From the NCBI GenBank assembly GCA_964551545.1, contig CAZKCT010000001.1, positions 36,065 to 100,064 on the forward strand: a DNA stretch of 64,000 nucleotides. Reading direction: 5' to 3'. Below, piece after piece: positions 35,133-60,887 of this stretch (position 1 is its first letter; every line of letters begins with the position of its first letter). The notes beneath the pieces were generated by a model that searched no databases, was not told the DNA's origin, and worked only from the letters and a program-made list of their open reading frames with translations. Source of the DNA: an uncultured Piscirickettsiaceae bacterium (GTDB lineage: Bacteria; Pseudomonadota; Gammaproteobacteria; GCF-002020875). Made by a program: the position numbers and the translations under genes.

Positions 35133-36104
35133 ATGAAAGAGCGTTGGCGCTCGTTACTTCTGCTGGTTGCGTTGCTCCTCTCTTTCGGGGCGACCGGAGT
35201 TGAGGATGGCTCACGCTGTCTGGTGGTCTACTCCTACCATACCGGTTATGCATGGAACGATGCAGTCGATCAGGCGTTGCGCCGGGGGCTGGAAGGGCAT
35301 TGTGAGCTGCGCCCGTTCTATATGGACTCCAAACGCAACCCTAATCCGACCTATCTGCAAGAGAAGGCGGCTGAGGTGGTGGCGCTGATCGAATCCTGGT
35401 CTCCGGATGTGGTGATTGCCGTTGATGACAATGCTTCCAAATATGTGGTGGTGCCCCATCTCAAGGGGCGTGAATTGCCGGTCGTTTTTTGTGGGCTGAA
35501 TGGCGCTGCAGAGGAGTATGGCTATCCATTGTCCAATACCACCGGAATGATGGAGGTGTCGCCTGTTGAGCCGCTATTGCTGACTGCCACGCGAATCATG
35601 AATCTGTCGACTTCGGGTATGCGCGCGCACTTGATTGATGGTGATCGCCTCAGTGCCCATAAGGTTCATCGTAGTATGCAGCGTGTGTTGGCGCAGTGGG
35701 GCGGGGCACTGGAGCCTCATTTTGTACAGAACTTCGAGGAGTGGAAGGCGGCCTACCGAGCATCGCAATCCGGTGACCTGGTGGTGTTGGTGAATAATGC
35801 CGGGATTGAAGGATGGGATCAGAAAGAGGCAGAGTCATTTGTGCGCCAGTATGGTGCGACCATGAGCGTCTCCAATAATCGCTGGATGCGGACATTGGCC
35901 GCACTGACCTTTGCGAAGTTGCCTGAGGAGCAGGGAGAGTGGTCAGCTGCAGCGGTCAAACGGATTCTTAGAGGGACTCCAGTCTCCCAGATTCCATTAG
36001 TGACCAACCGTCGCTGGAAGAGCTATGCCAGTCAGTCGCTGGTCTCAAGAATCGGGGTAAAATTTCCAGTGACGTTACAGCGCCGAGTTGAGTGGATTAA
36101 ATAG
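35133..36104 (+). CDS. PF04392-like ABC-transporter-type periplasmic substrate-binding protein (putative co-sensor)
   Basis: Signal peptide. The N-terminal VVYSYHTGYAWND block resembles the ABC_sub_bind (PF04392) family. It lies upstream of a hybrid sensor kinase. Confidence 0.55.
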   Translation: MKERWRSLLLLVALLLSFGATGVEDGSRCLVVYSYHTGYAWNDAVDQALRRGLEGHCELRPFYMDSKRNPNPTYLQEKAAEVVALIESWSPDVVIAVDDNASKYVVVPHLKGRELPVVFCGLNGAAEEYGYPLSNTTGMMEVSPVEPLLLTATRIMNLSTSGMRAHLIDGDRLSAHKVHRSMQRVLAQWGGALEPHFVQNFEEWKAAYRASQSGDLVVLVNNAGIEGWDQKEAESFVRQYGATMSVSNNRWMRTLAALTFAKLPEEQGEWSAAAVKRILRGTPVSQIPLVTNRRWKSYASQSLVSRIGVKFPVTLQRRVEWIK

Positions 36105-36131
36105 CGGACCAGAGAGACTGAGATAGAGGCG

Positions 36132-37106
36132 ATGATCAAAAAACAGTTATTGACCATACTGCTGCTGTGTCCGTTGGTGGTGCGTGCTGAGGCGCTTGAT
36201 CCGCTGGTGATGCAGCTTCATTGGGTCACTCAGACCCAGTTTGCTGGTTACTACGTGGCCCTTGATCGAGGACTCTACGAAAAGCATGGGCTGGATGTGA
36301 CGATCCTCTCCAGCGGCCCCAATCTCACACCTTCAAAAAATCTGCAATCGGGTCGAGTGGATGTGATTATCGATTGGCTTCCCAATGCGCTGGTACGGCG
36401 GGAGCAGGGGGCACCAATTGTGCAGATTGCGCAGATTTTTGATCACTCCGGTTACGTTCTCGCCTGTCGCAAGGACCATGGTGTAGAGAAGCTGGAGGAC
36501 CTGGATGGCAAGCGGATCGGCTCCTGGTTTGTCGGGGATGAGGAGAACATCATGGCGCTGCTGCGTGAGGTGGGGATTAATGCCGATATCTATCAACAGA
36601 ATTTTGATGTGACTGGCCTGGTGCGTGGGGAGACGGACTGTATTTCGACCATGCGCTATAACGAGTATCTACAGGTTTTGAATGAGGGAATGAGGGAAGA
36701 GGAGATCACTGCTTTTGATTTTGATCGCCTTGGATACGCTACGTTAGAGGATGGGCTCTATGTGTTGGAGTCAAGCCTTGAAGATCCTCAGATACGGGAT
36801 CGCCTGGTGCGCTTTATCGCGGCAACCATTGAGGGGTGGGAATATACGATAGAGCATCCAAAAGAGGCGCTGGAGATTGTGCTCGACCATGACCCAATTG
36901 GTTCACTGGATGAGCATCACCAATGGCGGATGTTGGAGCAGGTTCTGCAGTTGCTCCATGCGGATCGTGGCCAGATTGGCCATCTGCGCCCGGAGGCCTA
37001 TCAGCAGACCATCAAGCTGCTGCTCGATAGTCGCCAGTTGCTTTATTCACCGGTTAATGCAGTGAACGACCAGCTCTGGAAAGAGGCGCGCCAGCTGATT
37101 CGCTGA
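36132..37106 (+). CDS. NMT1/THI5-like (SsuA/TauA-type) periplasmic substrate-binding protein
   Basis: Signal peptide. LDPLVMQLHWVTQTQFAGYYVALDRGLYEKHGLDV is typical of NMT1-like binding proteins. Confidence 0.65.
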   Translation: MIKKQLLTILLLCPLVVRAEALDPLVMQLHWVTQTQFAGYYVALDRGLYEKHGLDVTILSSGPNLTPSKNLQSGRVDVIIDWLPNALVRREQGAPIVQIAQIFDHSGYVLACRKDHGVEKLEDLDGKRIGSWFVGDEENIMALLREVGINADIYQQNFDVTGLVRGETDCISTMRYNEYLQVLNEGMREEEITAFDFDRLGYATLEDGLYVLESSLEDPQIRDRLVRFIAATIEGWEYTIEHPKEALEIVLDHDPIGSLDEHHQWRMLEQVLQLLHADRGQIGHLRPEAYQQTIKLLLDSRQLLYSPVNAVNDQLWKEARQLIR

Positions 37107-39943
37107 TGACGTTTTCCATTCGTCAACGTCTTGTATTCGCCTTTGGGGGAATGAGTGCCCTGACACTGGTGATTACGGTGCTGGTTTGGTCCTCGTTTGA
37201 TGAGGTCTCTACCTCGCATCAGCAGACTTTAGCCGACACTATTCCGTTGACAGTCGAGGCGGACAAGCTGATCATTTCTGTGCAGCGGCTGGTGAAAATG
37301 GCCTCGCAGCTGAAGTCGATCTCTACTGAGGTGGATCACTGGGAGCGGCTATTTGATATTGATCAGCAGGAGCAGTTGATCAAGAATCAGTTTCAGAACC
37401 TGTTCCATGATGCGCCGGATAGTTTTCAGCCAGTCTCGACCTCGCTGGAACAGGTGTTGGATCAGTTGAAACTCAATATTTATGAGATCGATGCTCATAT
37501 TCAGAAGATCATCGGACTCAATCGGCAACGAACTGAGCTGGCGGAGAAGATTCAGAAGACTCAGCGTCAGTTCCTTGCGGTGATGGCGCCTTTGATTAAC
37601 CTGGCGCTGACAGAGTTGACGGCAGAAAAGGTAGAGCCTCGGGAGCAGTCCCGCAAGATCGATCGGCTGACACGGCTCTATTCTGCACTTTCGGCAGGGA
37701 ATCAACTTAGTCAGGATCTCCACTCCGTACTGCTGTCTGAGAAGAGGGTACAGCTCCAGACGATGGAGCGCCGGGTGAGTCGTACCATTCGTCGTATCCG
37801 CCGTAACTTGCGAGGGGTGGAGGGGCACGAGAAGACGGTTACCCCAGTGCTGGATCGATTCCAGACGCTCTCTTCCGCATTTGAGTTGCAACAGAAGCGG
37901 CTGGATGCAGAGAAGAAAGAGCAGAAGCTGGGAGAGAGAATGGCGCAGTTGGAGGACAATATTGCGCATCAGGTGGCGCGACTGATCCGGATCTCCCAGC
38001 AGCGTGTGGTTCAAAGCACCGATGAGACTGGAGCGCTGCTGCGACAGGCGCGTAATGTATCGGTGCTGTTTGCGGTATTGGTGCTGCTGGTTGCACTGTT
38101 CAGTGGTTGGTATGTTCATCGACAAGTGGGTGGGGGGCTGCAGCGGATCATCCGTTCAACCCGGCGCCTCACCACTGGAAAGCTGGATCTGGAGATTCCG
38201 GATCGTGGGCGTCAGGATGAGTTGGGGGAGATGGCCAATGCGCTAGAAGTGTTCCGGCAGCAGGCGATGGAGCGTGATGAGTTGACCGGTCGACTCAATC
38301 GCCATCAACAGCAGTTGGAGCAGCGGGTGGAGGAACGCACCAAGGATCTGCAGTTGGAGATCGAGAAGCATCTGAGGACAACCAAGCAGCTTGAGCAGAG
38401 CAACCGCTACAAGTCAGAGTTCCTGGCCAATATGAGTCATGAGATTCGTACCCCGATGAATGCCATTATCGGGTTTGGAGATCTGGCACAGGCGCTGCCT
38501 AGCTCTAGTGAGATGAAGAAGTATATCGACCATATTCAGGTCGCCTCGCGCTCTCTGCTGACCATCATCAACGATATTCTCGACTTCTCGAAGATTGAGG
38601 CGGGCAAGCTCGAGGTGGAGGCGCGCCCATTTGAGCTGGATCAGTTGCGGCATAATGTGGAGGCGATTCTCTCCGGTCAGGCTGAGAAGAAGGGGTTGGA
38701 GCTCCGCTGTCAGATTGATCCTGGCCTACCCGATTGGCTGTTAGGAGACCTCTCAAGAATTACGCAGGTGGTGATCAATCTGGGCAGTAATGCGATCAAG
38801 TTTACTGACAAGGGGCTGGTTGAGGTGAGCTGTCAGCGCAGTGAGGAGCATCCGGGGATGATTCGCATTGCGGTGAGAGATCAGGGGATTGGGATTGCCA
38901 AAGAGCACCTGGAGCGCATCTTTGAGTCCTTCTCACAGGCAGATGGTTCCATCAGCCGGACCTTTGGCGGGACAGGGCTTGGGCTGGCAATCAGCAAGCA
39001 GTTGGTCTCATTGATGGGCGGTGAGATCTCAGTCGAGAGCCGAGAGGGTGAGGGGAGTCTCTTCTCCTTTACTATTCCCTATCGTCCAATCGCGCCGAAT
39101 CAGACCTTGGTAGCGGATGAAGAGAAGGGGATATCAGTTGAGGAGAGTGGCGTGCTTGAAGGGCTGACGCTGCTGCTGGTGGAGGATAATCCGACCAATC
39201 AGCTATTGGCGGTGACGCTTCTGGAGGGGGTTGGAATTGAGGTTGATGTTGCTGCAAACGGGGAGGAGGCGGTTCATCAGGTGATGGAGAAGCACTATGA
39301 TCTGGCGTTGATGGATCTTCATATGCCGGTGATGAATGGTCTGGAGGCAACCCGGTTCATCCGTAAGCGGTTTGATGTGGATCAGCTGCCGATTATTGCA
39401 ATGACCGCCAATGTGATGGAGCAGCATCGCCGGGAAGCAATGGAGGCAGGTTTCAATGACTATCTGACCAAGCCGATTGATCAAGATTTGCTCTATCAGG
39501 CGTTGGCAAAGTGGGGAAGAAAAGTGGAGAGTAAAGCGGTGGAATCGCCGCAGTCCTTGCTCTCTCAGCGTGAAGAGGATCCGTTGGCGCCACTGCGAGA
39601 GGCATTACCACTATTCAATGTGGAGTTGTTGGCGCATTTGGTTGGGGAAGAGCCAGAGATCATGCGGGAGATCTATCTTCAGTTTCAGCAAGATACTCGG
39701 GAAGAGCTGGGGCTGATCCGTCGGGCGTTGGAGGATAAGGATACTGTCGCCCTGTCGCGGCCAATCCATACCATCAAGGGTATTGCGGCCAATGTGGGGT
39801 GTGTTGCAGTGCAGCAGCGAGCTCAGGCATTGGAACTGCTCTTGGAGCAGGAGGGGCAAGAGGAGCAGGTGATTGCTGAAGCGTGCCTGCTGGTAGAGCA
39901 AGTGGAAGAGGCGCAGCATCAGGTCGCATCACTACAGGAATAA
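37106..39943 (+). CDS. Hybrid sensor histidine kinase (TM/HAMP, HisKA, HATPase, REC, HPt)
   Basis: H-box NMSHEIRTPMNAIIGF. G-boxes GGTGLGLAIS. Receiver LLLVEDNPTNQ...DLALMDLHMP. C-terminal HPt HTIKGIAANVG. Confidence 0.85.
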   Translation: MTFSIRQRLVFAFGGMSALTLVITVLVWSSFDEVSTSHQQTLADTIPLTVEADKLIISVQRLVKMASQLKSISTEVDHWERLFDIDQQEQLIKNQFQNLFHDAPDSFQPVSTSLEQVLDQLKLNIYEIDAHIQKIIGLNRQRTELAEKIQKTQRQFLAVMAPLINLALTELTAEKVEPREQSRKIDRLTRLYSALSAGNQLSQDLHSVLLSEKRVQLQTMERRVSRTIRRIRRNLRGVEGHEKTVTPVLDRFQTLSSAFELQQKRLDAEKKEQKLGERMAQLEDNIAHQVARLIRISQQRVVQSTDETGALLRQARNVSVLFAVLVLLVALFSGWYVHRQVGGGLQRIIRSTRRLTTGKLDLEIPDRGRQDELGEMANALEVFRQQAMERDELTGRLNRHQQQLEQRVEERTKDLQLEIEKHLRTTKQLEQSNRYKSEFLANMSHEIRTPMNAIIGFGDLAQALPSSSEMKKYIDHIQVASRSLLTIINDILDFSKIEAGKLEVEARPFELDQLRHNVEAILSGQAEKKGLELRCQIDPGLPDWLLGDLSRITQVVINLGSNAIKFTDKGLVEVSCQRSEEHPGMIRIAVRDQGIGIAKEHLERIFESFSQADGSISRTFGGTGLGLAISKQLVSLMGGEISVESREGEGSLFSFTIPYRPIAPNQTLVADEEKGISVEESGVLEGLTLLLVEDNPTNQLLAVTLLEGVGIEVDVAANGEEAVHQVMEKHYDLALMDLHMPVMNGLEATRFIRKRFDVDQLPIIAMTANVMEQHRREAMEAGFNDYLTKPIDQDLLYQALAKWGRKVESKAVESPQSLLSQREEDPLAPLREALPLFNVELLAHLVGEEPEIMREIYLQFQQDTREELGLIRRALEDKDTVALSRPIHTIKGIAANVGCVAVQQRAQALELLLEQEGQEEQVIAEACLLVEQVEEAQHQVASLQE

Positions 39944-50788: not shown

Positions 50789-52003
50789 ATGTCAGAGATC
50801 AAGAAAGTCGTACTCGCCTACTCGGGCGGCCTGGATACCTCCATCATCCTCAAGTGGCTGGAGGATGTTTATGGGTGTGAGGTGGTCACCTTTACTGCTG
50901 ATATCGGTCAGGGTGAAGAGGTCGAGCCAGCGCGTGCCAAGGCGGAGGCGATGGGGATCAAGGAGATCTATATCGATGATCTGCGTGAGGAGTATGCGCG
51001 TGATTTTATTTTCCCGATGTTCCGCGCTAATGCGATCTATGAGGGGGAGTATCTGCTTGGTACCTCGATTGCCCGTCCACTGATCTCTAAACGTCTGGTG
51101 GAGATTGCCAAAGAGACCGGTGCGGATGCGATTTCCCACGGCGCAACCGGCAAGGGGAACGACCAGGTGCGCTTTGAATTGGGTGCCTATGCGCTGATGC
51201 CGGATGTGAAGATCATCGCGCCATGGCGCGAGTGGGATCTCAACTCGCGCGCCAAGCTGATGGCCTATGCCGAAGAGCACAATATCCCGGTCGACTTTGC
51301 CCAGCAAGGAAAGAAGTCCCCCTACTCAATGGATGCCAACCTGTTACACATCTCCTATGAGGGCGATATTCTGGAAGACCCCTACGCGGAGCCAGAAGAA
51401 GAGATGTGGCGTTGGAGTGTCTCCCCAGAGAATGCTCCGAATGAGCCGACTTACATTGAGGTCGATTTCGAGAACGGTGATCCGGTGGCGATCAATGGTG
51501 AGGCGATGAGCCCGGCCACGGTGATGGAGACCCTGAACAAGCTCGGTGGTGATAATGGGATCGGTCGTGACGATATCGTCGAGAACCGCTATGTCGGGAT
51601 GAAGTCCCGTGGTTGTTACGAGACACCGGGAGGGACCATTCTGCTCAAGGCCCACCGCGCAATCGAATCGCTGACGCTGGATCGTGAGGCGGCCCACATG
51701 AAGGATGAGCTGATGCCACGCTACGCCAAGCTGGTCTACAACGGCTACTGGTGGTCCCCAGAGCGGGAGATGCTGCAGGCAGCGATTGATGAGACCCAGA
51801 AGGTGGTCAATGGTACGGTACGTCTGAAGCTCTACAAGGGCAATGTGATTGTGGTGGGGCGCAAGTCCGAAACCAATAGTCTCTTCAATGAAGAGATCGC
51901 CACCTTTGAAGAGGATGATGGCGCTTATGACCAGAAGGATGCGGCCGGGTTTATCCGCTTGAACTCACTGCGACTGCGCATTGGAGCCAAGCAGGGTCGT
52001 TAG
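50789..52003 (+). CDS. argG: Argininosuccinate synthase
   Basis: N-type ATP pyrophosphatase motif AYSGGLDTS. 404 aa. Confidence 0.9.
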
Positions 52004-52025
52004 GCTGTATGGGCAGGATGGATTG

Positions 52026-52502
52026 ATGGGACCTTCAGTAAAACTGGTTTTCACCAATCCCATCCACTTTCTCGCCTTCGGATTTGGTTCGGGACTGGCT
52101 CCATTTGCACCTGGGACCTTTGGTACGCTGGCGGCCATTCCACTCTATCTAATGATGCAGCCGCTTTCGCTGCCACTCTATCTTGCTGTGGTTGCGATCG
52201 CGTTCATTGCTGGGATCTGGATCTGTGGGGTCGCGGGTGCCGACCTTGGGGTACATGATCATGGTGGGATTGTCTGGGATGAATTTGTTGGCCTTTGGGT
52301 AACCATGATCGCCGCCCCAGCGGGTTGGCCATGGGTGGTTGCTGGTTTTCTGCTCTTTCGTTTGTTTGATATCTGGAAGCCGTGGCCCATCAGTTGGGCG
52401 GATCAGCAGCTTTCTGGTGGCTTCGGGGTGATGCTGGATGATCTGATTGCAGGGCTTTATGCGCTGCTGTTGATGCAGATTGCGGCGTACTGGTTGAAAT
52501 AG
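52026..52502 (+). CDS. pgpA: Phosphatidylglycerophosphatase A
   Basis: Conserved PgpA motifs (GFGSGLAPFAPGTFGTL ... LFRLFDIWKPWPI). The ATG at 52026 is internal to the ORF-track call. Confidence 0.8.
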   Translation: MGPSVKLVFTNPIHFLAFGFGSGLAPFAPGTFGTLAAIPLYLMMQPLSLPLYLAVVAIAFIAGIWICGVAGADLGVHDHGGIVWDEFVGLWVTMIAAPAGWPWVVAGFLLFRLFDIWKPWPISWADQQLSGGFGVMLDDLIAGLYALLLMQIAAYWLK

Positions 52503-52517
52503 AAATAGCTGTCCCAC

Positions 52518-54119
52518 CTATCGAGGCAGGGTGATTTCAGCGCTGAATCCACCCTCTGGAAGATTATTGAGGGTTAGAGTGCCAGCGTGAGACTCGGTGA
52601 TCTCCTGGACAATGGCCAGACCAAGGCCGATGCCGCCACTCTGGCGATTTCTTGATGAGTCGGCTCGGAAGTAGGGGGTTGTGATCTTCTCCAGGAGTGC
52701 CGGGTCAACCCCGGGACCATCATCAACCACGCGAATGGTGAGCTGGCGTTCATTGTCCTCAATCAACAGCGCCACCTGCTCTCCATATCGGAATGCATTG
52801 TTGAGCAGATTCTGTATGGCGCGCCGGAGTTGGAGTGGCTGGCAGAGGTAGCGCCAATGTGCTTTGCCGTGACTGGAAAGTGGGCGGTTAACCTCCCTCA
52901 TCTCTTGCTGGATCTCAGCGATCAACTGGTTGATATCGATAATCCCGGGGCTTTCTTGGAGCTCTTCATCTCGCAGATAACTGAGAGAGTGCTCGACCAG
53001 TTGCTGGATCTCTCCAATGTCTGCAAGGCTCTGTTGTTGGGGGGTACCACTCAGTAGCGTTGAGATCCTGAGCTGCAGGCGGGTGAGTGGGGTACGAAGA
53101 TCGTGAGAGATGGCATTGAGCATACGAATACGGTTTTGGGTCTGAAGGATAAGCCTGCGTTCACTGCTTCGCTGCTGTTCATAGTACTGTGCGCTCTGCT
53201 GGCTCCGATACTGTACGGTCAGAAAGTAGATCATGGAGAGTATGCCTAGCGCTACCCAGTGAAAAAGAGAGAGCGTGAGAACCTTGATGGTTGCTTCTGA
53301 CCTCAGTAGAAAAGGTTGGCTGGGATTGTTGAGGCGGACTCGGTCCGTGAGGGAAATAGTGATGTTTCCGGCAAGGTCTGAAAGGCTTCCCGTGCCTTTT
53401 CTTTCTACCAGAGGGCGCTGTTTCTCATTGTTTGGGTTATAGAGTGAGAGCGCTGTGGTCAAGCGAGATTTGGGAGGGAGTAGTGTGGTTGGATCAATCA
53501 ACAACCCAACATGGAGCTCAGAATACCAGGGGAATGGTTGGTCCTGCTTTTCAATTAGACGGGTGGTACGTTGTAGTAGGAAATAGTGGGGTTTGTCATC
53601 AATCAAGTAGGGGAGGGAGCTGTGTGCATCGACCCCACTGGTGGCATGAATAGTTCCACTCAGGGCAGGGATCTTTTGTGCGTCCTCGTTGGCCAGAGTG
53701 TATAAATCATCGCTACGGGCGGAATGGTAGAGCAGAATGGGGGAGGTGAGTGCCGGGTGGTTTCCTGCTTTCGTTGTCTCTGTGGGGTGCTCCGTGGGCA
53801 GTGTTGGGAATAGCATTACAGCGCGAACCTGTGGAAAAGGAGCGATCAGCGGGGCGATGGTTGCATGAATCCGTTGCTGCTGGAATAGATCTGCAGGGCC
53901 GATTAGCTGGGCGATGGTTTGCAGAACATTTTCATGGGTCTGGAGGAGATGTTCAATCTGTTGTTTCTGCTGGTGAGAGGCCGAAAAAAAGTCTGCTCTT
54001 GCGGCCACATATTGGTGGATAGTGAGCCATCCAAGCGTGACAGAAACCAGTAGCACCCACCCCGCAATCAAGGTGCGATATCGACGCCAGAGATGACGGA
54101 TAGAGAGGCGGTTCCTCAA
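52518..54119 (-). CDS. Two-component sensor histidine kinase (periplasmic sensing domain, HisKA, HATPase)
   Basis: Two TM helices flanking a periplasmic domain of about 250 aa. H-box LNAISHDLRTPLTRL. N/G boxes (NLLNNAFRY, GGIGLGLAIV). Confidence 0.8.
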   Translation of the reverse strand: MRNRLSIRHLWRRYRTLIAGWVLLVSVTLGWLTIHQYVAARADFFSASHQQKQQIEHLLQTHENVLQTIAQLIGPADLFQQQRIHATIAPLIAPFPQVRAVMLFPTLPTEHPTETTKAGNHPALTSPILLYHSARSDDLYTLANEDAQKIPALSGTIHATSGVDAHSSLPYLIDDKPHYFLLQRTTRLIEKQDQPFPWYSELHVGLLIDPTTLLPPKSRLTTALSLYNPNNEKQRPLVERKGTGSLSDLAGNITISLTDRVRLNNPSQPFLLRSEATIKVLTLSLFHWVALGILSMIYFLTVQYRSQQSAQYYEQQRSSERRLILQTQNRIRMLNAISHDLRTPLTRLQLRISTLLSGTPQQQSLADIGEIQQLVEHSLSYLRDEELQESPGIIDINQLIAEIQQEMREVNRPLSSHGKAHWRYLCQPLQLRRAIQNLLNNAFRYGEQVALLIEDNERQLTIRVVDDGPGVDPALLEKITTPYFRADSSRNRQSGGIGLGLAIVQEITESHAGTLTLNNLPEGGFSAEITLPR

Positions 54120-54925
54120 TGGAGGTCGTCCTGTTCTGGGTGGGAAGACGGAGTGGACCGCTCCGTACTCTTTTCTGATTCGGCGATCTGTAGCTCCAGC
54201 GCCTCATAGGCGGCTAGGACCTCTTTCCGATTCCGTTCCAGTGTGGAAGAGACACGATCCAGGCTTTGTGTGATCTCTCCCAACTCTCCCTCAGTGGGTA
54301 GGTTTTGTGCTGGAGGGGTGAGATTGCCCGATGCGATGCTTCCCATGGCTAGCTTGAGCCTAGACAAGAATTGAGTGAGTTGTTTGGAGAGAAGGTAGAC
54401 CAACAGTAGTGCAACCACAAAGGCGGAGAGACCCGCCCAGAGTGTCTCCATAATCAGTTGTTGGCGACTCTCTTTGAGTCTGTTGTTTGAGAGGGTGAGC
54501 GCCACCGATCCCAGTAGTGGGGCTGGCGCAGTATTGGATGAGTCCCATGTGTCAATAGATAGCATTGACGCATGGATGGGGGCGGTAAAGACCGTTCCTG
54601 GTGTGACCTCCAACAAGGACGAGGGGATGTGCTCAATTTGGGCGAGCAGATGGAACTGGTTATCGTAGATCTCGATTCGGTCAATCTCTGGCTGTTGTAC
54701 GACCTGATTCAGGTAGGTGCGAAGGGCGTCCATATCCCCAGAGAATATCGAATATTCACAACTGGGTGCGATCTGTTTTACCAGAGTTTCTCCATGTCGC
54801 TGATGCTCTATAAGGAGGTGACTCCATCCGTTATAGGCTGTATGGAGTGTCATGGCGATCCATACGATCAAGGCGGGGATAGCGCCTAGCAGAAGAATCT
54901 GGGTTCGAAAAGGCCAATGGTTCAT
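54116..54925 (-). CDS. Membrane protein with a periplasmic domain and a cytoplasmic HAMP-like coiled coil, with no kinase domain
   Basis: TM1, a periplasmic region of about 130 aa, TM2, then a HAMP-like LSKQLTQFLSRLKLAMGSIASGNL and a coiled-coil tail. ATGA overlaps on both sides. Confidence 0.5.
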   Translation of the reverse strand: MNHWPFRTQILLLGAIPALIVWIAMTLHTAYNGWSHLLIEHQRHGETLVKQIAPSCEYSIFSGDMDALRTYLNQVVQQPEIDRIEIYDNQFHLLAQIEHIPSSLLEVTPGTVFTAPIHASMLSIDTWDSSNTAPAPLLGSVALTLSNNRLKESRQQLIMETLWAGLSAFVVALLLVYLLSKQLTQFLSRLKLAMGSIASGNLTPPAQNLPTEGELGEITQSLDRVSSTLERNRKEVLAAYEALELQIAESEKSTERSTPSSHPEQDDLH

Positions 54926-55779
54926 TGCAACGTCTCCTCAAACTGTTGCAGTTGTTGGGTCAAGGTCGATGGATGGTCCAGATGGATCCCGAGGGATCGT
55001 GCGACCTTGGGGTTGGTGACTACGGTAAATTGTGCGGGGTACTGTGGTGAGAACAGGGCAGTGTTGCCTTGTCCTCCCCGGCTGAATTGAGAAATCCACG
55101 TTTGAGTCTGCGCGATCATCTCTTCGCTCGATGTTGATGCCCCCACCACGCAGCCCGCCTGTACCGCCGACGTGGTGTGACAGATTAGCGGTTTCTGTTG
55201 CCGGTAAGCGGAGAGCAGAATGCCGCGAAAACTTTGGGCATTAAATAGGGCGGGGTCATGGTGGGTAATCAAGGCATTCGTGTTAGAGAGGAGCTGTCTC
55301 AATGAGGGGTGTAGCTGTTGTGTGGTCTGTTGCGTGATCTGTAGCCCCTGTTGAGTGAGGATTTCAATATTCTCCTCCTCTCCACTCTGCAGGATACCGA
55401 CGTGGTGAATGGATGGGAGTGCAAGGGCGCTTAACTGAATCAGTCGATGGAGCGGTTGTTCGCGAAAGATTGCAGTGGCGGGGTGTTTGAGTGACGGGGC
55501 CTGTTGTAGGGCCTGATCGAACTCATCATGGGTCACCAACAGGGCCAATAGAGGAGTGGGGATAGACTGTTGTAGTGCGTTGGTTAGGCTCTTCGGGCCA
55601 ATGGTAATGAGTAAGTTGGGTGTGCTGTCAGAGAGGGGTAAGGAGCTGAGTGTCTCCTCTAACTGTATAGAGAAGGACTGATAGGCCTGTGGAGGGTCCG
55701 CCAGTAAGGTGATGGTTCCCGATTGCGCCCCGCTGCCGAATAGAATGCACAGCAGCAAAAGGAGCAGGCGAATACTCAT
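54922..55779 (-). CDS. PF04392-like periplasmic substrate-binding-type protein
   Basis: Has a signal peptide. The C-terminal block QYPAQFTVVTNPKVARSLGIHL resembles ABC_sub_bind family tails, cf. 35133. Confidence 0.45.
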   Translation of the reverse strand: MSIRLLLLLLCILFGSGAQSGTITLLADPPQAYQSFSIQLEETLSSLPLSDSTPNLLITIGPKSLTNALQQSIPTPLLALLVTHDEFDQALQQAPSLKHPATAIFREQPLHRLIQLSALALPSIHHVGILQSGEEENIEILTQQGLQITQQTTQQLHPSLRQLLSNTNALITHHDPALFNAQSFRGILLSAYRQQKPLICHTTSAVQAGCVVGASTSSEEMIAQTQTWISQFSRGGQGNTALFSPQYPAQFTVVTNPKVARSLGIHLDHPSTLTQQLQQFEETLQ

Positions 55780-55797
55780 GCTGGGATATCGCGGGGG

Positions 55798-57771
55798 TTA
55801 CCACTCACTTTTTAGCGTTAGCATGAAATCGGTTTTATTATTATTGGAGTGGCTGCTGTCATACTCCACTACCGTTCCAAGGTGGTGACGAAGCAGTAAG
55901 CCGATTGTTGCGGGTTGAGCGGATGTGAGCTCTATTTTTTGATTGAGTGCTAGATCCACGCGTCGCATTGGCGTAGTGAAATCGGCGGCTGAGCAGCCAC
56001 TGTTTTCGGTGGTGTAGCTGAGTTCGCCACAGAGTAATCCCATATAGTAGAAGGCGAGCGAGCCCTGCAGGGAGGTGCCGAAGCGGTGGGTGGCCATTGC
56101 AGAGAGGATCTTCTTTGGACTGGAGCTGGAGAGATCCTCTGTTTCACTGTGGTAGCTGAAGATATGCCCATAGGAGAGATCCAGACGATTCTTGGCATCC
56201 GGTGTCCAATGAGTCTCAAGTTCAATACCGTTAATCTCTGCAGAGTAGAGATTGGCATGGGTGAATGGGTATAGATCAAAACTGGGAGTGAGGAGTGCTG
56301 TAGGAATTGAATTTGTGGTTAACCCCGTCATGTCGGAGAGTCGCTCCTGATAAAGACGGATGTCTCCACTAGCATTGTGTTGCGGTAGATTAAAGTGCCA
56401 CCCCAGCTCCCGAGCAGTGATCTGTTCGGGACGTAGAGCATAGCTGGATGAGCCGATTTCACTAAGCCTAGAGGAGGCGACGGCGGTGATATAGTTAACT
56501 TCTGGATCGGTCCATTTGGCATACTGCTCTAGCAGATCTGGAGAGCGAATGGCCTCGGAGTAGCTGGCCCGCAGGGTGTGGTTGGGGGTAAGGTGGTAGT
56601 TTAGAGCGACTCTTGGGGAGAGTTTGCTAAACCCTCCAACATCTTCATGGTCCCACATGACCCCGCCATGGAGTAGTAGATGATCGGCGGCTCGCCACTC
56701 CAGATTGGCATAGAGTTGATGGCTGTTCTTCTTGTAGGTCTGCCCATCGCCAAAATAGGTGGAGGACTTTACCCGATCCTGTCGCAGTGCAAGACCAGAG
56801 ACAGAGCGTAGTTGATCATTATGGTTCTGGTTGTACTGTAACTCCAGATGGTAACGGGACTCATCCCAGTTGCGGTTGCCAGCACTCCACTCATGGATCA
56901 CGTTGATTTGTTGATGATAGGCGGTCAGCTCCGTTGAGCGGTCTGCGTCAATGAGTCGCTTCCAGCGGATCTGTTGGTGGCTGTTCTTCCAGTGGGCAGT
57001 AGTTGGCAATGAGATTTTGCCAACATCCTTGTCTCCATCCTTGAATCCCAGGTCGAGATGAATTTGGTCGGTTGGGCTGTGTTGATAATCCCCTCTCCAG
57101 TTGAGGAAATGGAGTGCCTCTTCATCTCGGTAGGTACCTTGGTCATAGCCATCGTCCCCATAGTATTTCATCGAGAGGCGGTAGCTGAGATCCTGGAGAT
57201 TGCCTACATGACGGAATGCACTCTCTCTCCGGTCGCCAGTTCCTGTGGTGACGGAGAGCAGCGAGGGGGTGTCGGCCGAATTGCGAGTGATGATGTTGAT
57301 CACTCCCATAAAGGCATTGGCACCATAAGAGACCGTGGAGGGGGCGCGCACCACCTCGATGCGTTCAATGTCCTCGATGATCAGAGGGAGATCGTTCCAC
57401 ATCACTCGAGAGAATCCGGCCTGATAGACGGAGCGCCCGTCGACTAAGACTTGCAGGTGACGACCATTCCCGCTACCGGATGTATCAAGTCCATGATATT
57501 TAACCTGCGGTTTATTGCCGTTGCTATAGACCACAAACATGCCAGGAACGAGGCGGAAAAGCTCCGCGATCTCTCGAATCCCGCTCTCCTCAATCTGTTT
57601 TCTGCGGATGATGGTGACCGCGGCAGGGGCCTCATTAATGGCCTGCTCGATTCTTGATGGCGTGAGTACAATAGGAAGGGCGTCGAGGTCGTCCAGTGGC
57701 TCTACTGCAATACCAGTTGATGATGTGGTGATTAGCAGGACGGGGATGATGTTCCGGAAAGAGCGCCTCAC
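55798..57771 (-). CDS. TonB-dependent outer-membrane receptor
   Basis: Signal peptide and an N-terminal plug with a TonB-box-like region (ALPIVLTPSRIEQ). Barrel motifs. The C-terminus ends in an aromatic residue (TLKSEW). Confidence 0.8.
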   Translation of the reverse strand: MRRSFRNIIPVLLITTSSTGIAVEPLDDLDALPIVLTPSRIEQAINEAPAAVTIIRRKQIEESGIREIAELFRLVPGMFVVYSNGNKPQVKYHGLDTSGSGNGRHLQVLVDGRSVYQAGFSRVMWNDLPLIIEDIERIEVVRAPSTVSYGANAFMGVINIITRNSADTPSLLSVTTGTGDRRESAFRHVGNLQDLSYRLSMKYYGDDGYDQGTYRDEEALHFLNWRGDYQHSPTDQIHLDLGFKDGDKDVGKISLPTTAHWKNSHQQIRWKRLIDADRSTELTAYHQQINVIHEWSAGNRNWDESRYHLELQYNQNHNDQLRSVSGLALRQDRVKSSTYFGDGQTYKKNSHQLYANLEWRAADHLLLHGGVMWDHEDVGGFSKLSPRVALNYHLTPNHTLRASYSEAIRSPDLLEQYAKWTDPEVNYITAVASSRLSEIGSSSYALRPEQITARELGWHFNLPQHNASGDIRLYQERLSDMTGLTTNSIPTALLTPSFDLYPFTHANLYSAEINGIELETHWTPDAKNRLDLSYGHIFSYHSETEDLSSSSPKKILSAMATHRFGTSLQGSLAFYYMGLLCGELSYTTENSGCSAADFTTPMRRVDLALNQKIELTSAQPATIGLLLRHHLGTVVEYDSSHSNNNKTDFMLTLKSEW

Positions 57772-58484
57772 TGTTCGGTGATTTCAACGGGGGCGGAGAG
57801 GATATACCCTTGATTACGAATGGTCTGGATAATCATCCCGCGTTTGTCCCCAATCTGCTCTCGAATCCGACTGACCTGAACATCAATACTGCGGCTGTTG
57901 ACCTCTACCTGGGTGCCTAGTAACTCATCGGTGACCTGGTGCCGGTTGAGTATCTGGTTGGGACGGTTCAGAAAATGGAGGAGCAGCTTGAGTTGGCTAT
58001 CAGGAAGCGCGACTCGCTGGCCGTCCTCTCGAGTAATGACCCGATCAGGCATGGAGAGGGTGATCCCTCCAAAATGGAAGTGTTGTTGTTTGTCAGGAGA
58101 GGCGGGTGTTGGGGTGCGACGCAGGATGGCATGGATTCGTTCCAACAGCTCACTCGGGTCAAAAGGTTTGGTCAGGTAGTCGTCGGCCCCCAGTCGAAGG
58201 CCGTGAATGCGGTCGCTGGTTTCGGCACGGGCCGAGAGCATAATGATTGGAAGATCGCTCTTTTTGCGTAGGGTTTCGGCGATAGAGAAGCCATCTTCAC
58301 CGGGGAGCATGATATCGAGAATGAGGAGTGCAATCGGCTCACGCCCCAGAATTTCCCATGCCTTCTCCCCATCTGGGGCGGTCCAGACATTTTCAAAGCC
58401 CTTCTTGTTCAGATAGTGGCGGAGCAGCGAACGGATTTCATTGTCGTCATCGACAATCAGCAGGTGTTGAGATAGAGATTCCAT
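57768..58484 (-). CDS. OmpR-family response regulator (REC plus winged-helix)
   Basis: Receiver LLIVDDDNEIR ... LLILDIMLPGEDG ... KPF. C-terminal trans_reg_C winged helix (QRVALPDSQLKLLLHFL). Confidence 0.85.
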   Translation of the reverse strand: MESLSQHLLIVDDDNEIRSLLRHYLNKKGFENVWTAPDGEKAWEILGREPIALLILDIMLPGEDGFSIAETLRKKSDLPIIMLSARAETSDRIHGLRLGADDYLTKPFDPSELLERIHAILRRTPTPASPDKQQHFHFGGITLSMPDRVITREDGQRVALPDSQLKLLLHFLNRPNQILNRHQVTDELLGTQVEVNSRSIDVQVSRIREQIGDKRGMIIQTIRNQGYILSAPVEITEQ

Positions 58485-58537
58485 ATAAAGAATTATAGAT
58501 AATCCCCTGCTGAAATTGTGTTACTGAATGTAACGAG

Positions 58538-58804
58538 TCAAGTGTTTGATTGATCTGTGTTTTGACTTGTGGCACCTTCCTCAATGATCTGATCGAGACG
58601 AATCTCAATGGGCTGTTTTTTCCCATTGATTGCAATGAGGAATTCTCCTCCTGGGCGGGTCACCAGATCGGTTGGGAAGATCTTCTGTGATTCAGTGATC
58701 CCTGAGTTTGTATGCCACTGCAGTCGTAGTGGCCTGCGCTGCAGGATGGCCAGCTCATACTCGCTGTGGCGGGCACAGGAGATGGGCTGGTAAGACGACC
58801 TCAT
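58538..58804 (-). CDS. Hypothetical 88-aa protein translationally coupled to argF
   Basis: Its ATG overlaps the argF stop (ATGA) on the same strand. I recognise no motif. Kept because of the coupling geometry. Confidence 0.3.
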
Positions 58805-59706
58805 TGCTGCATCAAGAACTCGAGCAGGGCTTTCTGGGCATGAAGGCGATTCTCGGCCTCATCCCAGACCACGCTCTGCGGGCCATCGATGACGCCAGCG
58901 CTCACCTCTTCTCCTCGATGTGCAGGGAGGCAGTGCATGAAGAGAGCCTCGGGATTGGCGTGGCTCATCAGCGCCTCATCCACTTGGTAATCCTGGAAGA
59001 TGGTGTTGCGAGTGCTGCTCTCCTCCTCCTGTCCCATGCTGGCCCAGACATCCGTCACAATCAGATCTGCATTGCGTACCGCATCCGCCGGGTCTCTCAT
59101 CAGGGTGATGGAAGATTCGGTCTGTGCCACCATCTCCGGCTTGGGCTCATACCCTTCAGGGGTGGCGATGTTGAGGTGGAAGCCAAAGCGTAGCGCTGCG
59201 TTCATGTAGGAGTGGCACATATTATTGCCATCCCCGATCCATGCCACGGTCTTGCCACGGATGGAGCCACGATGTTCAACATAGGCCTGCATGTCGGCCA
59301 GTAACTGACAGGGGTGGTAGTCATCAGTCAGCGCATTGATGACAGGGACCTTGGAGTACGCTGCAAAGCGTTCCACATTTTCATGGGAGAAAGTGCGGAT
59401 CATCACCACATCGACCATGCTGGAGAGGACGCGTGCGCTATCTTCAATCGGCTCGCCACGCCCCAGTTGGGTATCTCGAGAGGAGAGAAAGATGGCGCTG
59501 CCGCCAAACTGGGCCATACCGGTCTCGAAGGAGACCCGGGTGCGGGTGGAGGACTTCTCGAAAATCATCCCCAGCACCTGGTTCTTCAGCGGCTCATAGA
59601 TCTCACCTGCGTGCTGCATCTTCTTCAGCTCAATCGCGCGTTCGATGAGCTGCTCCAGCTCCTCGCTGCTGAAATCAAGCAGAGTCAGAAAGTGTCTTGT
59701 GGTCAT
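58801..59706 (-). CDS. argF: Ornithine carbamoyltransferase
   Basis: STRTR carbamoyl-phosphate-binding motif, HCLP and 301 aa. It overlaps the argD stop. Confidence 0.9.
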
Positions 59707-60887
59707 GATGGCTGCTCCTCACTCCAGCGTTCTATCAATTCGCTCACCTGATCGATGACTTGGTCGGCCTCATCGTCACTGAGAATCAGTGGGGGCAGCA
59801 GACGAACAACCCGCTCTGCAGTGACGTTAATGAGCAGCTTCTGTTCAAGTGCCTTGGCGACCAGCTCGGTGCAGGGATGAGCTAGCTCAATGCCAATCAT
59901 TAACCCGCTGCTGCGGATGGCGTTGACCTGATCGTTGTTGCCTAGGCGATCTACGAATCCTTGATAGATCCGCTCCCCCAGTTCAGCAGCACGTTCGACA
60001 AGCTTCAGTTGCTGCATGGTCTCAATCACGGCAAGGGCGCCACGAGTCACCAGTGGATTGCCGCCAAAGGTCGAACCGTGCATGCCCGGTTGGAATAGGG
60101 TGGCGGCCTTGCCATGAGCGAGACAGGCGCCAATGGGGAGTCCATTTCCCAGCCCCTTCGCTAGAGTCATGATATCCGGCTGAATGTCATGATGTTGGAA
60201 GCCAAACCACTCTCCGGTGCGCCCCATCCCAGTCTGAATCTCGTCCAGAATCATCAGCCATCCCTGCTCGTCACAGAGAGTCCGAATGCCGCTTAGGTAG
60301 TCTGCATCGGGAATCTGAATGCCGCCTTCCCCTTGTACCGGCTCGACCATCACCGCAACGACCTCTTTGGTGCGGGCTGCGATCTCGGTCAATGCCTCCA
60401 GATCATTATAAGGCGCGCGAATGAACCCTTTGACCAGTGGCTCAAAGCCGGCTTGGACCTTGCGGTTGCCGGTGGCACTGAGGGTGGCAAGGGTGCGTCC
60501 ATGGAAACTCCCTTTGACCACAATAATAGCGGGGTTGTCGATGCCGCTTTGATGACCATAGAGTCGGGCCAGTTTGATCGCGGCCTCATTGGCCTCGGCA
60601 CCGGAGTTGCCAAAGAAGATATTTTCCATCCCGGAGATCTCGCAGAGGCGATCGGCCAGCTGTTGCTGGTTGGGGATCCCGTAGAGGTTGGAGGTGTGGA
60701 GCAGGGTACCAGCCTGGTCGCAGATGGCGGCAGTCACTGCAGGGTGGCTATGTCCCAGTCCGCAGACGGCGATTCCACTCAAGGCATCGAGATAACGGTC
60801 TCCGTTCTCGTTTTCAAGCCATGCGCCTTCGCCTCGAACAAAAGAGACGGGCAGGCGCCCATAGGTGGGCATGATGGTGTCACTCAT
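59703..60887 (-). CDS. argD: Acetylornithine aminotransferase
   Basis: Class III aminotransferase with PLP-lysine region [15 protein letters not shown]. Confidence 0.85.

Follow-up and report, generated by a model that had tools for sequence, protein, structure and literature searches.

Here, we describe five co-directional genes on the minus strand of the window, the whole 64-kb stretch of DNA that was analysed. An initial annotation of this DNA had assigned the genes to positions 52518-58484, and all five open reading frames are present at exactly its coordinates, with the domain types it had claimed. From the promoter onward, the features are:

58519..58534, minus strand: candidate binding site for the regulator, GTTACA-TTCA-GTAACA (paired hexamers at 10-bp spacing), 21 nt ahead of the -10 box
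58492..58497, minus strand: perfect TATAAT -10 box, 7 nt before the regulator ATG
57768..58484, minus strand: OmpR-family response regulator (Response_reg + Trans_reg_C; 238 aa)
55798..57771, minus strand: TonB-dependent outer-membrane receptor (TBDR; Plug + barrel; 657 aa; GTG start)
54922..55779, minus strand: PF04392 (ABC_sub_bind)-type periplasmic protein (PF04392 at 42.1 bits; 285 aa; signal peptide)
54116..54925, minus strand: sCache_4 + HAMP protein without an output domain (Pfam; 269 aa), hereafter the stub
52518..54119, minus strand: sensor histidine kinase (HisKA + HATPase_c; 533 aa; TTG start)

The TBDR GTG start lies on the regulator stop (GTGA), the PF04392 and stub genes overlap at ATGA, and the kinase TTG start lies on the stub stop (TTGA), each a 4-nt overlap, with an 18-nt gap between the TBDR and PF04392 genes. 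The genes had been described as joined by ATGA overlaps apart from one 18-nt gap; the gap and three 4-nt overlaps are there, but only one overlap is literally ATGA. Splitting of the set by internal promoters or terminators, which the annotation had raised, left no signal: no internal promoter was found on the coding strand by a consensus scan of the operon, a generic scan that says little here, as the conserved operon promoter, which has no -35 hexamer, escaped it, and 6 terminator-like sites were present against 6.2 expected by chance.

The putative regulator site covers the -35 position, and GTWACA-N4-GTAACW has a single match in the 64-kb window (0.15 expected). GTAACA-N4-GTAAC(A/T) is found at an equal distance upstream of the regulator gene in related loci L002, L005, L010 and L011, and with one mismatch in L021 and L024; we take the repeat to be similar to OmpR/CpxR-type direct-repeat boxes. 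TATAAT is invariant in 7 of 7 lineages, 6-8 nt before the regulator ATG. There is no room for a Shine-Dalgarno sequence between the -10 box and this ATG, and the operon transcript is predicted to be leaderless or nearly so. Conservation of the repeat and TATAAT in seven lineages implies, as far as sequence can indicate, autoregulation and a leaderless mRNA.

The regulator (Response_reg 106.9 bits, Trans_reg_C 58.4 bits; Pfam) keeps the acidic pocket DDD, the phospho-acceptor aspartate in LLILD57, and K106-P-F. The kinase consists of TM1, a ~250-aa CHASE/dCache-like periplasmic domain and TM2, followed directly by DHp-CA without HAMP. Pfam scores above cutoffs, together with the HisKA H-box and the HATPase N, G1 and G2 boxes, place the pair in the OmpR/EnvZ class, and the kinase core is EnvZ-like. 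They are not EnvZ/OmpR orthologues: OmpR, the best NCBIfam match of the regulator, scores 194 bits against a cutoff of 331, and EnvZ scores 141 against 415, with the missing HAMP and the long, CHASE-like periplasmic domain as further differences. Modelling of the kinase sensor predicts a CHASE fold, with a long N-terminal helix and two PDC subdomains between two TM helices; unlike the CHASE-domain kinases Arabidopsis AHK4 and Xanthomonas PcrK, the protein has no sequence-level CHASE match (~10% identity) and is not a hybrid. No Pfam family matches this domain even at E<=10 in six family members, and it is found nowhere outside this five-gene family. CHASE-type kinases normally lack HAMP. For that reason a HAMP without a kinase beside a kinase without HAMP is no evidence that one complements the other, an idea that weakened once the kinase sensor proved CHASE-like.

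The stub is composed of TM1 (residues 10-28), a periplasmic sCache_4 domain (27.8 bits), TM2 (161-179), HAMP (26.6 bits; cutoff 25) and a conserved coiled-coil tail, and stops ~8 residues before the H-box position in an alignment to sCache_4/HAMP-HisKA kinases. The HAMP domain is divergent and the usual AS1 proline is missing. The N-terminus matches those of LetS, BarA and YfiN (DgcN/YfiN, E 1.6e-5; CHASE8, E 0.005), and the protein shows weak similarity to 5o7j, the periplasmic domain of GacS. An exhaustive profile search with the stub returned only three clusters below 1e-30, all ~260 aa or a fragment, and the next tier was mostly 600-940-aa proteins; the seven longer proteins scanned in that tier are sCache_4/HAMP-HisKA kinases, several of them BarA-like hybrids. 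The stub has the sCache_4-HAMP N-terminus of BarA, GacS and LetS and lacks their HisKA-HATPase-receiver-Hpt transmitter, and its sequence points clearly to derivation from a BarA-like gene.

The annotation had allowed that the HAMP-only gene might be a frameshifted piece of the kinase. This is ruled out, as it is a conserved stand-alone gene: stub and kinase are separate conserved open reading frames in nine loci, with differing junctions (-35 to +6 nt), and the kinase, with a TM1, sensor and TM2 of its own, has an EnvZ-like core as opposed to the BarA-like ancestry of the stub. Across the nine loci the stub is 40-66% identical, with an intact frame, equal length and the invariant tail LERNRKE..AAYE.LEL. 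In every case it directly precedes this kinase, and the stop codon of the one often overlaps the start codon of the other.

The PF04392-type protein has an N-terminal hydrophobic segment and matches its family above the gathering cutoff (25.9 bits) over profile positions 58-282 of 293; PF04392 is matched by 9 of 10 family members. The family profile matches the aromatic-amino-acid binding proteins 3lft (5e-15), 3lkv and 6hni, and solved PF04392 members bind aromatic amino acids (PMC10443332). Compared with remote homologues, the protein has a shortened N-lobe, and it may fail to bind a small ligand. Two cysteines, C200 and C210, are conserved in aligned members of the five-gene family and not in remote homologues. 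No ABC permease or ATPase genes were found in the operon, its flanks, the window or the relatives examined. No relation of its sequence to YfiR/DUF4154 was found, with no DUF4154 match even at E<=1.

The TBDR (Plug 75 bits, residues 46-157; barrel 99.9 bits; Pfam) has, from its GTG start, a normal signal peptide of ~22 aa with the Plug directly after it. An STN N-terminal signalling extension is absent from the receptor, and no sigma or anti-sigma genes lie near the operon, which rules out a FecA-FecR-FecI-type transducer. Identification of the substrate class by homology, suggested in the annotation, gave no assignment: no siderophore, heme, B12 or other TBDR family cutoff was reached (TonB-hemin 102 vs 317 bits, B12 96 vs 600, siderophore 92 vs 224, FepA 49 vs 493). 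The nearest family is NF053590 (TOL_0244-type; 181 bits vs a cutoff of 645), which is also the best match, below cutoff, for the TBDRs of L005, L008, L009 and L010.

At least six further lineages have the gene order at the matching chromosomal site (argF/rof-like … pgpA/argG), with 34-68% protein identity and intergenic spacing of -35 to +18 nt, so that the conserved synteny for which the annotation had proposed a search is borne out. The full five-gene set occupies the arg/pgpA site in L005/L006, L010, L021/L022 and L024; L007 has the matching order on a short contig that ends within the regulator gene, and L004 and L023 are partial loci. Recurrence of the order and tight spacing in independent lineages is, on this comparison, more than chance. 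In L011 the TBDR is reduced to a 74-aa remnant and the periplasmic protein is kept, and in L002 both TBDR and binding protein are missing, with the stub and kinase adjacent. Because these two lineages lost the TBDR, and L002 the binding protein as well, and kept regulator, stub and kinase, the outer part of any relay is dispensable. The five-gene family is tiny and comes from metagenome assemblies only, within a small group of uncultured marine Gammaproteobacteria; a genome scan found only two representative genomes, and two metagenome scans found no further members, only unrelated kinases. Trees were built by neighbour-joining, without support values.

In four of four contexts outside the family (L008, L009, L012 and L025), the gene directly after a PF04392-type gene encodes a protein with a BarA-like sCache_4/HAMP N-terminus, and a TBDR gene lies immediately upstream in all four. 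The L008 kinase scores 746 bits against the BarA model; the L009 kinase is of the HisKA_3 type, with residues 13-270 matching the BarA N-terminus. BarA/GacS-type kinases have the TBDR and PF04392 pair directly upstream in three unrelated loci, and the TBDR described here is 28-30% identical over ~660-700 aa to those preceding BarA-like kinases in L008, L012 and L025. With block scores against these modules of 211-262 bits (TBDR), 77-82 bits (binding protein) and 59-85 bits (stub), the TBDR/PF04392/stub block is, judged by these alignments, homologous gene for gene to an input module that stands directly before BarA/GacS-type hybrid kinases of other Gammaproteobacteria. The third gene of those modules encodes a full kinase, and its counterpart in the five-gene operon is truncated right before the phospho-accepting histidine.

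The initial annotation had proposed a multi-protein relay running from outer-membrane uptake through periplasmic binding and inner-membrane sensors to the regulator. The homologous triad before BarA-like kinases strengthens the view that TBDR, periplasmic protein and inner-membrane sensor go together. Signal flow need not be linear, since the kinase has its own CHASE/dCache-like sensor. The TBDR is dispensable in two relatives, and with a complete sensor in the kinase, signal input may not require the stub. The reading that we favor, tentatively and at slightly less than even confidence, is that a borrowed BarA-type input triad serves as co-sensor for a CHASE-type OmpR/EnvZ-class system, and that the five genes form one envelope-sensing transcription unit with its own promoter, probably autoregulated.

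At the core of this co-sensor model, the kinase of the OmpR/EnvZ-class pair would sense through its CHASE/dCache-like periplasmic domain. The TBDR would import a solute that is scarce or bulky through the outer membrane, or report its own occupancy; the PF04392 protein, which has no ABC transporter partner, would bind the solute or be captured or released by the receptor, and would dock on the sCache_4 domain of the stub. The stub is proposed as a co-sensor because it cannot phosphorylate anything, and might, as part of a hetero-complex in the membrane, tilt the neighbouring CHASE-type kinase between its kinase and phosphatase activities. The phosphorylated regulator would then bind GTAACA-N4-GTAACA over the -35 position, switching on the operon as a leaderless mRNA, and presumably other targets. 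Gene content, domain identities, conservation, block homology and the conserved promoter are observed, and the binding protein and sensor genes are tied by conserved adjacency and translational coupling; which way information flows, every contact between proteins, the ligand and the sign of regulation are inferred. Precedents exist in the binding-protein-dependent kinases LuxP-LuxQ, TorT-TorS and ChvE-VirA and in auxiliary membrane regulators of kinases. As in those three systems and in HptA-HptS and XylFII-LytS, a transporter-less binding-protein homologue is encoded beside a PAS/Cache-type membrane sensor, and docking is presumed; unlike them, the binding protein belongs to PF04392, its likeliest docking partner has no kinase, and the operon includes a TBDR and also a separate second kinase that carries a CHASE-like sensor of its own. 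The stub shares with BarA, GacS and LetS the TM-sCache_4-TM-HAMP-coiled-coil N-terminus, and its closest full-length relatives are BarA-like and have the same TBDR and PF04392 genes upstream; it differs from them in lacking DHp, CA, receiver and Hpt, and the operon differs in its EnvZ-like kinase core and in a regulator of the OmpR type rather than the UvrY/GacA (NarL) type. It is unlikely, in our estimate, that TBDR, PF04392 protein and sCache_4 domain constitute a dedicated and as yet undescribed input pathway of BarA/GacS-class sensors that has been severed here and acts in trans, as a 'split sensor', on an unrelated CHASE-type kinase.

Two-component systems controlling an adjacent TBDR gene are established in Pseudomonas aeruginosa (pfeRS-pfeA, pirRS-pirA), where the kinase is thought to sense a periplasmic ligand imported by the receptor, a FepA-family siderophore receptor encoded by the target gene. 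By this precedent the TBDR, and perhaps the PF04392 protein, could be uptake outputs that share the operon only for co-expression, with the CHASE-like kinase domain detecting the periplasmic substrate. We consider this somewhat unlikely. The kinase sensor domain is complete, well modelled and of a ligand-binding type, one promoter with a regulator-type repeat would co-induce all five genes, and the signalling genes persist in lineages without the TBDR. The same account leaves a binding protein without an inner-membrane transporter and a conserved kinase-less stub without a role, and has to accommodate a PF04392 gene that is always joined to an sCache_4/HAMP sensor gene, including in the four unrelated contexts. 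Here the OmpR/EnvZ-class system is likewise beside a TBDR, but the receptor gene lies inside the operon with two extra envelope proteins, and the receptor falls in no known substrate family, FepA included. If the TBDR were only a co-induced uptake gene, the operon would be an unremarkable case of substrate-induced uptake, with a single odd accessory protein.

Partner switching like that of YfiBNR (TpbB) would make the PF04392 protein, instead of a ligand shuttle, a periplasmic inhibitor of the sCache_4/HAMP protein, sequestered by an occupied or TonB-energised TBDR to free the sensor. The three layers (an outer-membrane protein, a small periplasmic alpha/beta protein and an inner-membrane PAS-like+HAMP sensor) fit this, as do the weak match of the stub to the YfiN N-terminus and to CHASE8, and a nearest TBDR model from a cassette that NCBI ties to 'YfiR-like' proteins and kinases. 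YfiR is disulfide-dependent, and the shortened N-lobe and family-specific cysteine pair of the binding protein also agree. Still, this scheme is decidedly improbable: the periplasmic protein is PF04392 without a YfiR (DUF4154) signature, the outer-membrane partner is a TBDR and not an OmpA-like lipoprotein, output is by phosphotransfer to a DNA-binding regulator with no GGDEF domain, and L011 has the periplasmic protein without the TBDR. Inhibition of one kinase by another is established for RetS-GacS in the Gac network, and the stub, with its clear BarA-like origin and divergent HAMP lacking the AS1 proline, might on that precedent act in trans on the real BarA/GacS of the host through HAMP/TM heterodimers, or be the slowly decaying remnant of a duplicated barA operon, but a role apart from the adjacent kinase is very doubtful given its intact frame and invariant motifs across nine loci, its fixed position before this kinase, and its retention in L002.

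The annotation had not recognised the arrangement as a described system, and full-text literature searches found no description of it; papers on HmrABCX and the ped cluster that came up have no bearing on it. NCBIfam does hold models for an analogous cassette, NF053590/NF053592 (the latter a kinase, 'YfiR-like protein-associated'), in which a TBDR is likewise combined with a sensor kinase and a periplasmic protein, and for which no publication was found. The TBDR here and those of all related modules have NF053590 as their best-matching model (158-181 bits), but scores are far below the cutoffs (645 and 194), and the periplasmic protein here is of the PF04392 type. The operon appears to be an undescribed form of envelope sensing aided by accessory proteins. 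If the relay is true, a natural two-component kinase would be controlled by a kinase-less sensor paralogue fed by a binding protein and an outer-membrane receptor, with four envelope proteins in front of one regulator. The natural signals of BarA/GacS-class sensors are, to our knowledge, largely unknown and have been an open question for decades; with the TBDR and PF04392 pair upstream of such kinases in three unrelated loci, the relay would offer a concrete input route for them. If the split-sensor reading holds, HAMP output could travel laterally from one membrane protein to a different one. The conserved repeat, -10 box and leaderless promoter could serve as a ready reporter for rebuilding the system in a model host, which matters for a system whose natural hosts are uncultured.

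The annotation had counted the operon as the second PF04392-kinase pairing in the window. That count is only weakly true: the open reading frame at 35133-36104 does not reach the PF04392 threshold (15.5 bits, E 0.01), and the gene at 36132-37106, which adjoins the hybrid kinase, is of the NMT1/THI5 type (PF09084, 128 bits).

Five minus-strand open reading frames span 58484 to 52518, at the coordinates of the initial annotation:

57768-58484, minus strand: response regulator, 238 aa (Pfam Response_reg and Trans_reg_C)
55798-57771, minus strand: TonB-dependent receptor (TBDR), 657 aa (Pfam Plug and β-barrel)
54922-55779, minus strand: periplasmic binding-type protein, 285 aa (PF04392, ABC_sub_bind, 42.1 bits, cutoff 25.9)
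54116-54925, minus strand: kinase-less sensor stub, 269 aa (sCache_4 and HAMP, without output domain)
52518-54119, minus strand: histidine kinase, 533 aa (Pfam HisKA and HATPase_c)

Read from the sequence, the junctions are, in order, GTGA, an 18-nt gap, ATGA and TTGA; the 4-nt overlaps and the gap were correctly annotated, but not every overlap is ATGA. The receptor starts at GTG, with a normal signal peptide as the result, and the kinase at TTG, which agrees with the N-termini of its homologues. Hydropathy places a signal peptide on the binding protein and two transmembrane helices each in the stub (10-28 and 161-179) and the kinase (16-34 and 280-298). The kinase H, N, G1 and G2 boxes are all intact, as are the acidic pocket, Asp57 and Lys106 of the regulator. 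Against NCBIfam, the regulator is closest to OmpR and the kinase catalytic core to EnvZ, RstB and CpxA, all below equivalog cutoffs. JGI gene calls on the same DNA give a 205-aa stub (protein P0001) and 512- and 517-aa kinases; these begin at internal codons and omit the first transmembrane helix, so automatic annotation of stub and kinase differs between sources. The window matches metagenome scaffold SUTE22-1_SAMN10231902 scaffold_69, and the same proteins are found on ~30 contigs.

The operon sits among arginine-biosynthesis and other housekeeping genes (50789-52502 and 58801-60887). On its upstream side, in the same orientation, are an argD-like aminotransferase gene, argF and a small ROF-like ORF; on its downstream side are convergent pgpA and argG, followed by pyruvate dehydrogenase genes. 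The site shows no visible mobile-element signature. The ROF-like ORF (58538-58804, minus strand, 88 aa), between argF and the regulator gene, bears a weak likeness (19.3 bits, E 0.0013) to ROF, a modulator of Rho-dependent termination, and keeps its position in relatives at 55-88 aa. Synteny of the gene set, proposed as a check on the initial annotation, is present in relatives from a narrow clade:

Loci of relatives, with identity to the window proteins
L005 and L006, metagenome scaffolds: five genes complete, ≈42-60%
L007, metagenome contig: TBDR, binding protein, stub, kinase and the regulator gene 3' end (contig end), ≈43-56%
L010, Gammaproteobacteria MAG JABGQL010000028: five genes complete, ≈45-60%
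L021 and L022, GCA_964344135.1 and a metagenome contig: five genes complete, ≈36-55%
L024, metagenome contig: five genes complete, ≈33-57%
L004, metagenome contig: partial (contig end), ≈66-68%
L023, metagenome contig: partial (contig end)
L011, uncultured Piscirickettsiaceae MAG: regulator, 74-aa TBDR remnant, binding protein, stub and kinase, ≈38-57%
L002, GCA_964344805.1: regulator, stub and kinase only, ≈44-56%

All of these occupy the arg/pgpA site except L007, a short contig with its flanks outside it, and the arg/pgpA position is constant in every relative with visible flanks. The family is rare: word-indexed searches of 5.8 billion proteins gave 3 clusters for the stub, 9 for the binding protein and 6 for the sensor domain of the kinase; in an exhaustive profile search of 1.84 billion representatives no more than three stub clusters fell below 1e-30, and two metagenome scans yielded no further members. 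The operon is lineage-restricted. The L011 remnant (L011:7720-7923), in the 264 nt that separate the regulator gene from the binding-protein gene, is 46% identical to window receptor residues 482-555 and is the deletion scar of a lost receptor. In neighbour-joining trees with a BarA-like root and without support values, L002 nests among the five-gene lineages, so the five-gene state is probably ancestral and the shorter versions losses. Since the receptor is lost in L011, and receptor and binding protein in L002, with stub and kinase kept in both, this pattern of loss shows the stub-kinase pair to be the obligate core and the outer layers to be optional.

The initial annotation raised the possibility that the HAMP-only gene is a frameshifted piece of the kinase; this is ruled out, as its relatives are BarA/GacS-like and its tail motif (LERNRKE..AAYE.LEL) is invariant across the family. 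Among ~2,900 sCache_4-HAMP homologues of the stub in the exhaustive profile search, matches below the three family clusters are mostly 600-940-aa proteins, and the seven longer matches scanned are sCache_4/HAMP-HisKA kinases, several of hybrid BarA/GacS type. Alignment to such kinases from residue 1, through HAMP and coiled coil to ~8 residues ahead of the H-box, also rejects the stub as a broken part of the adjacent kinase. Its periplasmic domain (residues ~32-157) has weak similarity to the GacS periplasmic domain structure 5o7j, as well as to the YfiN N-terminus and to CHASE8, and its HAMP is divergent, scoring barely over cutoff and lacking the usual AS1 proline. The closest full-length relatives are two proteins, P0021 and P0022, the kinases of loci L012 and L025.

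Remote homologues of the binding protein occur in three other locus types. At three unrelated loci, L008 (5687-11759), L012 (3041-8817) and L025 (3891-9694), the order is TBDR, PF04392 protein, BarA-like hybrid kinase (746 bits on the BarA model in L008). All three are flanked by a PALP (cysK-like) gene on the upstream side and by pdxJ on the downstream side, extended by rlmD in L008 and L025 and by acpS-recO-era-rnc-lepB-lepA in L012 and L025, and this shared housekeeping context suggests that each kinase is that organism's BarA orthologue. A further locus, L009, encodes a NarL-type regulator, an Rce1-like protein, TBDR, binding protein and a kinase whose N-terminus matches the BarA sCache_4/HAMP region and whose core is HisKA_3. 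The window TBDR is 28-30% identical (211-262 bits) to the upstream TBDRs of L008, L012 and L025, the binding protein 25-35% identical (77-82 bits) to their PF04392 proteins, and the stub 24-28% identical (59-85 bits) to the kinase N-termini of L012 and L025. The TOL_0244-family TBDR is the nearest NCBIfam model for the window and related-module receptors (158-181 bits, cutoff 645). In the simplest history, a CHASE-type OmpR/EnvZ-class operon would have gained a TBDR–PF04392–barA-like block, cut ahead of the H-box, between its regulator gene and its kinase gene. TBDR plus PF04392 may constitute a so far undescribed input module of BarA orthologues, and this BarA/GacS input link is a testable lead.

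Upstream of the regulator gene, the same layout recurs in seven lineages (the window, L002, L005, L010, L011, L021 and L024) whose proteins are only ~55-60% identical:

58519-58534, minus strand: repeat GTAACA-N4-GTAAC(A/T), in the window GTTACATTCAGTAACA
58492-58497, minus strand: perfect TATAAT -10 box, after a 21-nt spacer from the repeat

In all seven the ATG lies 6-8 nt past TATAAT, too short a distance for a leader or Shine-Dalgarno sequence, so the regulator mRNA is predicted to be leaderless; leaderless mRNAs are thought uncommon in Gammaproteobacteria. The repeat (one mismatch each in L021 and L024) has a single copy in the 64-kb window, where the expectation is 0.15, and a single copy in each related locus, at a constant place. 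Hexamer pairs 10 bp apart across the −35 region are typical activator sites of the OmpR/PhoB/CpxR family. There are no obvious internal promoters or terminators of the kind that might split the operon: a generic promoter scan, which missed the conserved promoter, reported no other coding-strand site, and terminator-like matches are at chance level. Read-through from same-strand argF may occur; with the conserved repeat and -10 box and no internal signals, an autoregulated promoter of its own, with a putative regulator site, is most likely.

Alongside the observed gene content, domains, coupling, synteny, block homology and promoter conservation, we tentatively offer as the best model, possible though short of probable, a relay from receptor to binding protein to stub co-sensor to kinase to regulator. 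The receptor would let in, or report on, a solute. No ABC permease or ATPase gene lies in the operon neighbourhood, so the PF04392 protein would be a signalling binding protein, acting on the stub sCache_4 domain. The kinase-less stub would in turn tune the adjacent CHASE-type kinase, and the regulator would switch on the operon. No Pfam sensor domain was found in the kinase even at E ≤ 10, and in a full-length structure model TM2 joins the DHp helix directly. CHASE-type kinases normally lack HAMP; this absence being usual for the class, complementation between a HAMP without kinase and a kinase without HAMP was set aside. In its working, the proposed relay would most resemble LuxPQ, TorTS and ChvE-VirA, as a binding-protein-dependent kinase with an auxiliary membrane regulator. 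The operon echoes PfeRS-PfeA and YfiBNR, but judged by the defining features tested it appears to belong to none of these systems. A role of the receptor as co-induced cargo, on the PfeRS-PfeA pattern, is rather unlikely, and a YfiBNR-like sequestration switch is more doubtful still. Least credible is the stub, BarA-like yet always kept with its kinase, as a remnant or as acting on a genuine BarA. Full-text literature searches found no paper on this operon or on the TBDR–PF04392–BarA arrangement, in line with the initial view of an undescribed system, but NCBIfam has models for a comparable cassette of TBDR, YfiR-like protein and kinase, so its curators are aware of the general theme.

The receptor scores below cutoff for every NCBIfam substrate family. 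Cytokinin-like molecules are the ligands of CHASE domains. Among PF04392 proteins, those of known structure take Trp, Tyr or Phe as ligands (PMC10443332). The binding protein has a shortened N-lobe and, across aligned five-gene family members, a conserved cysteine pair (PLIC200HT…AGC210) within the family-invariant stretches YRQQKPLICHT and AGC; equivalents of C200 and C210 are absent from its remote homologues. A single periplasmic cysteine is invariant in the three aligned stub sequences (QIAPSC56E). A disulfide or redox role for these cysteines is possible, and together with the short N-lobe they would allow an interaction that is non-canonical and perhaps redox-linked.

The window was also annotated with a second PF04392-kinase pairing. 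A sensor cluster does exist there, but its PF04392 match is sub-threshold (15.5 bits, E 0.01):

35133-39943, plus strand: sub-threshold PF04392 ORF, NMT1/THI5-type binding protein (128 bits) and TorS-like hybrid kinase

The hybrid kinase aligns end to end with the TorS model (503.6 bits, cutoff 676.5), and the cluster resembles a binding-protein-dependent kinase of the TorT/TorS kind, here with two genes for binding proteins.
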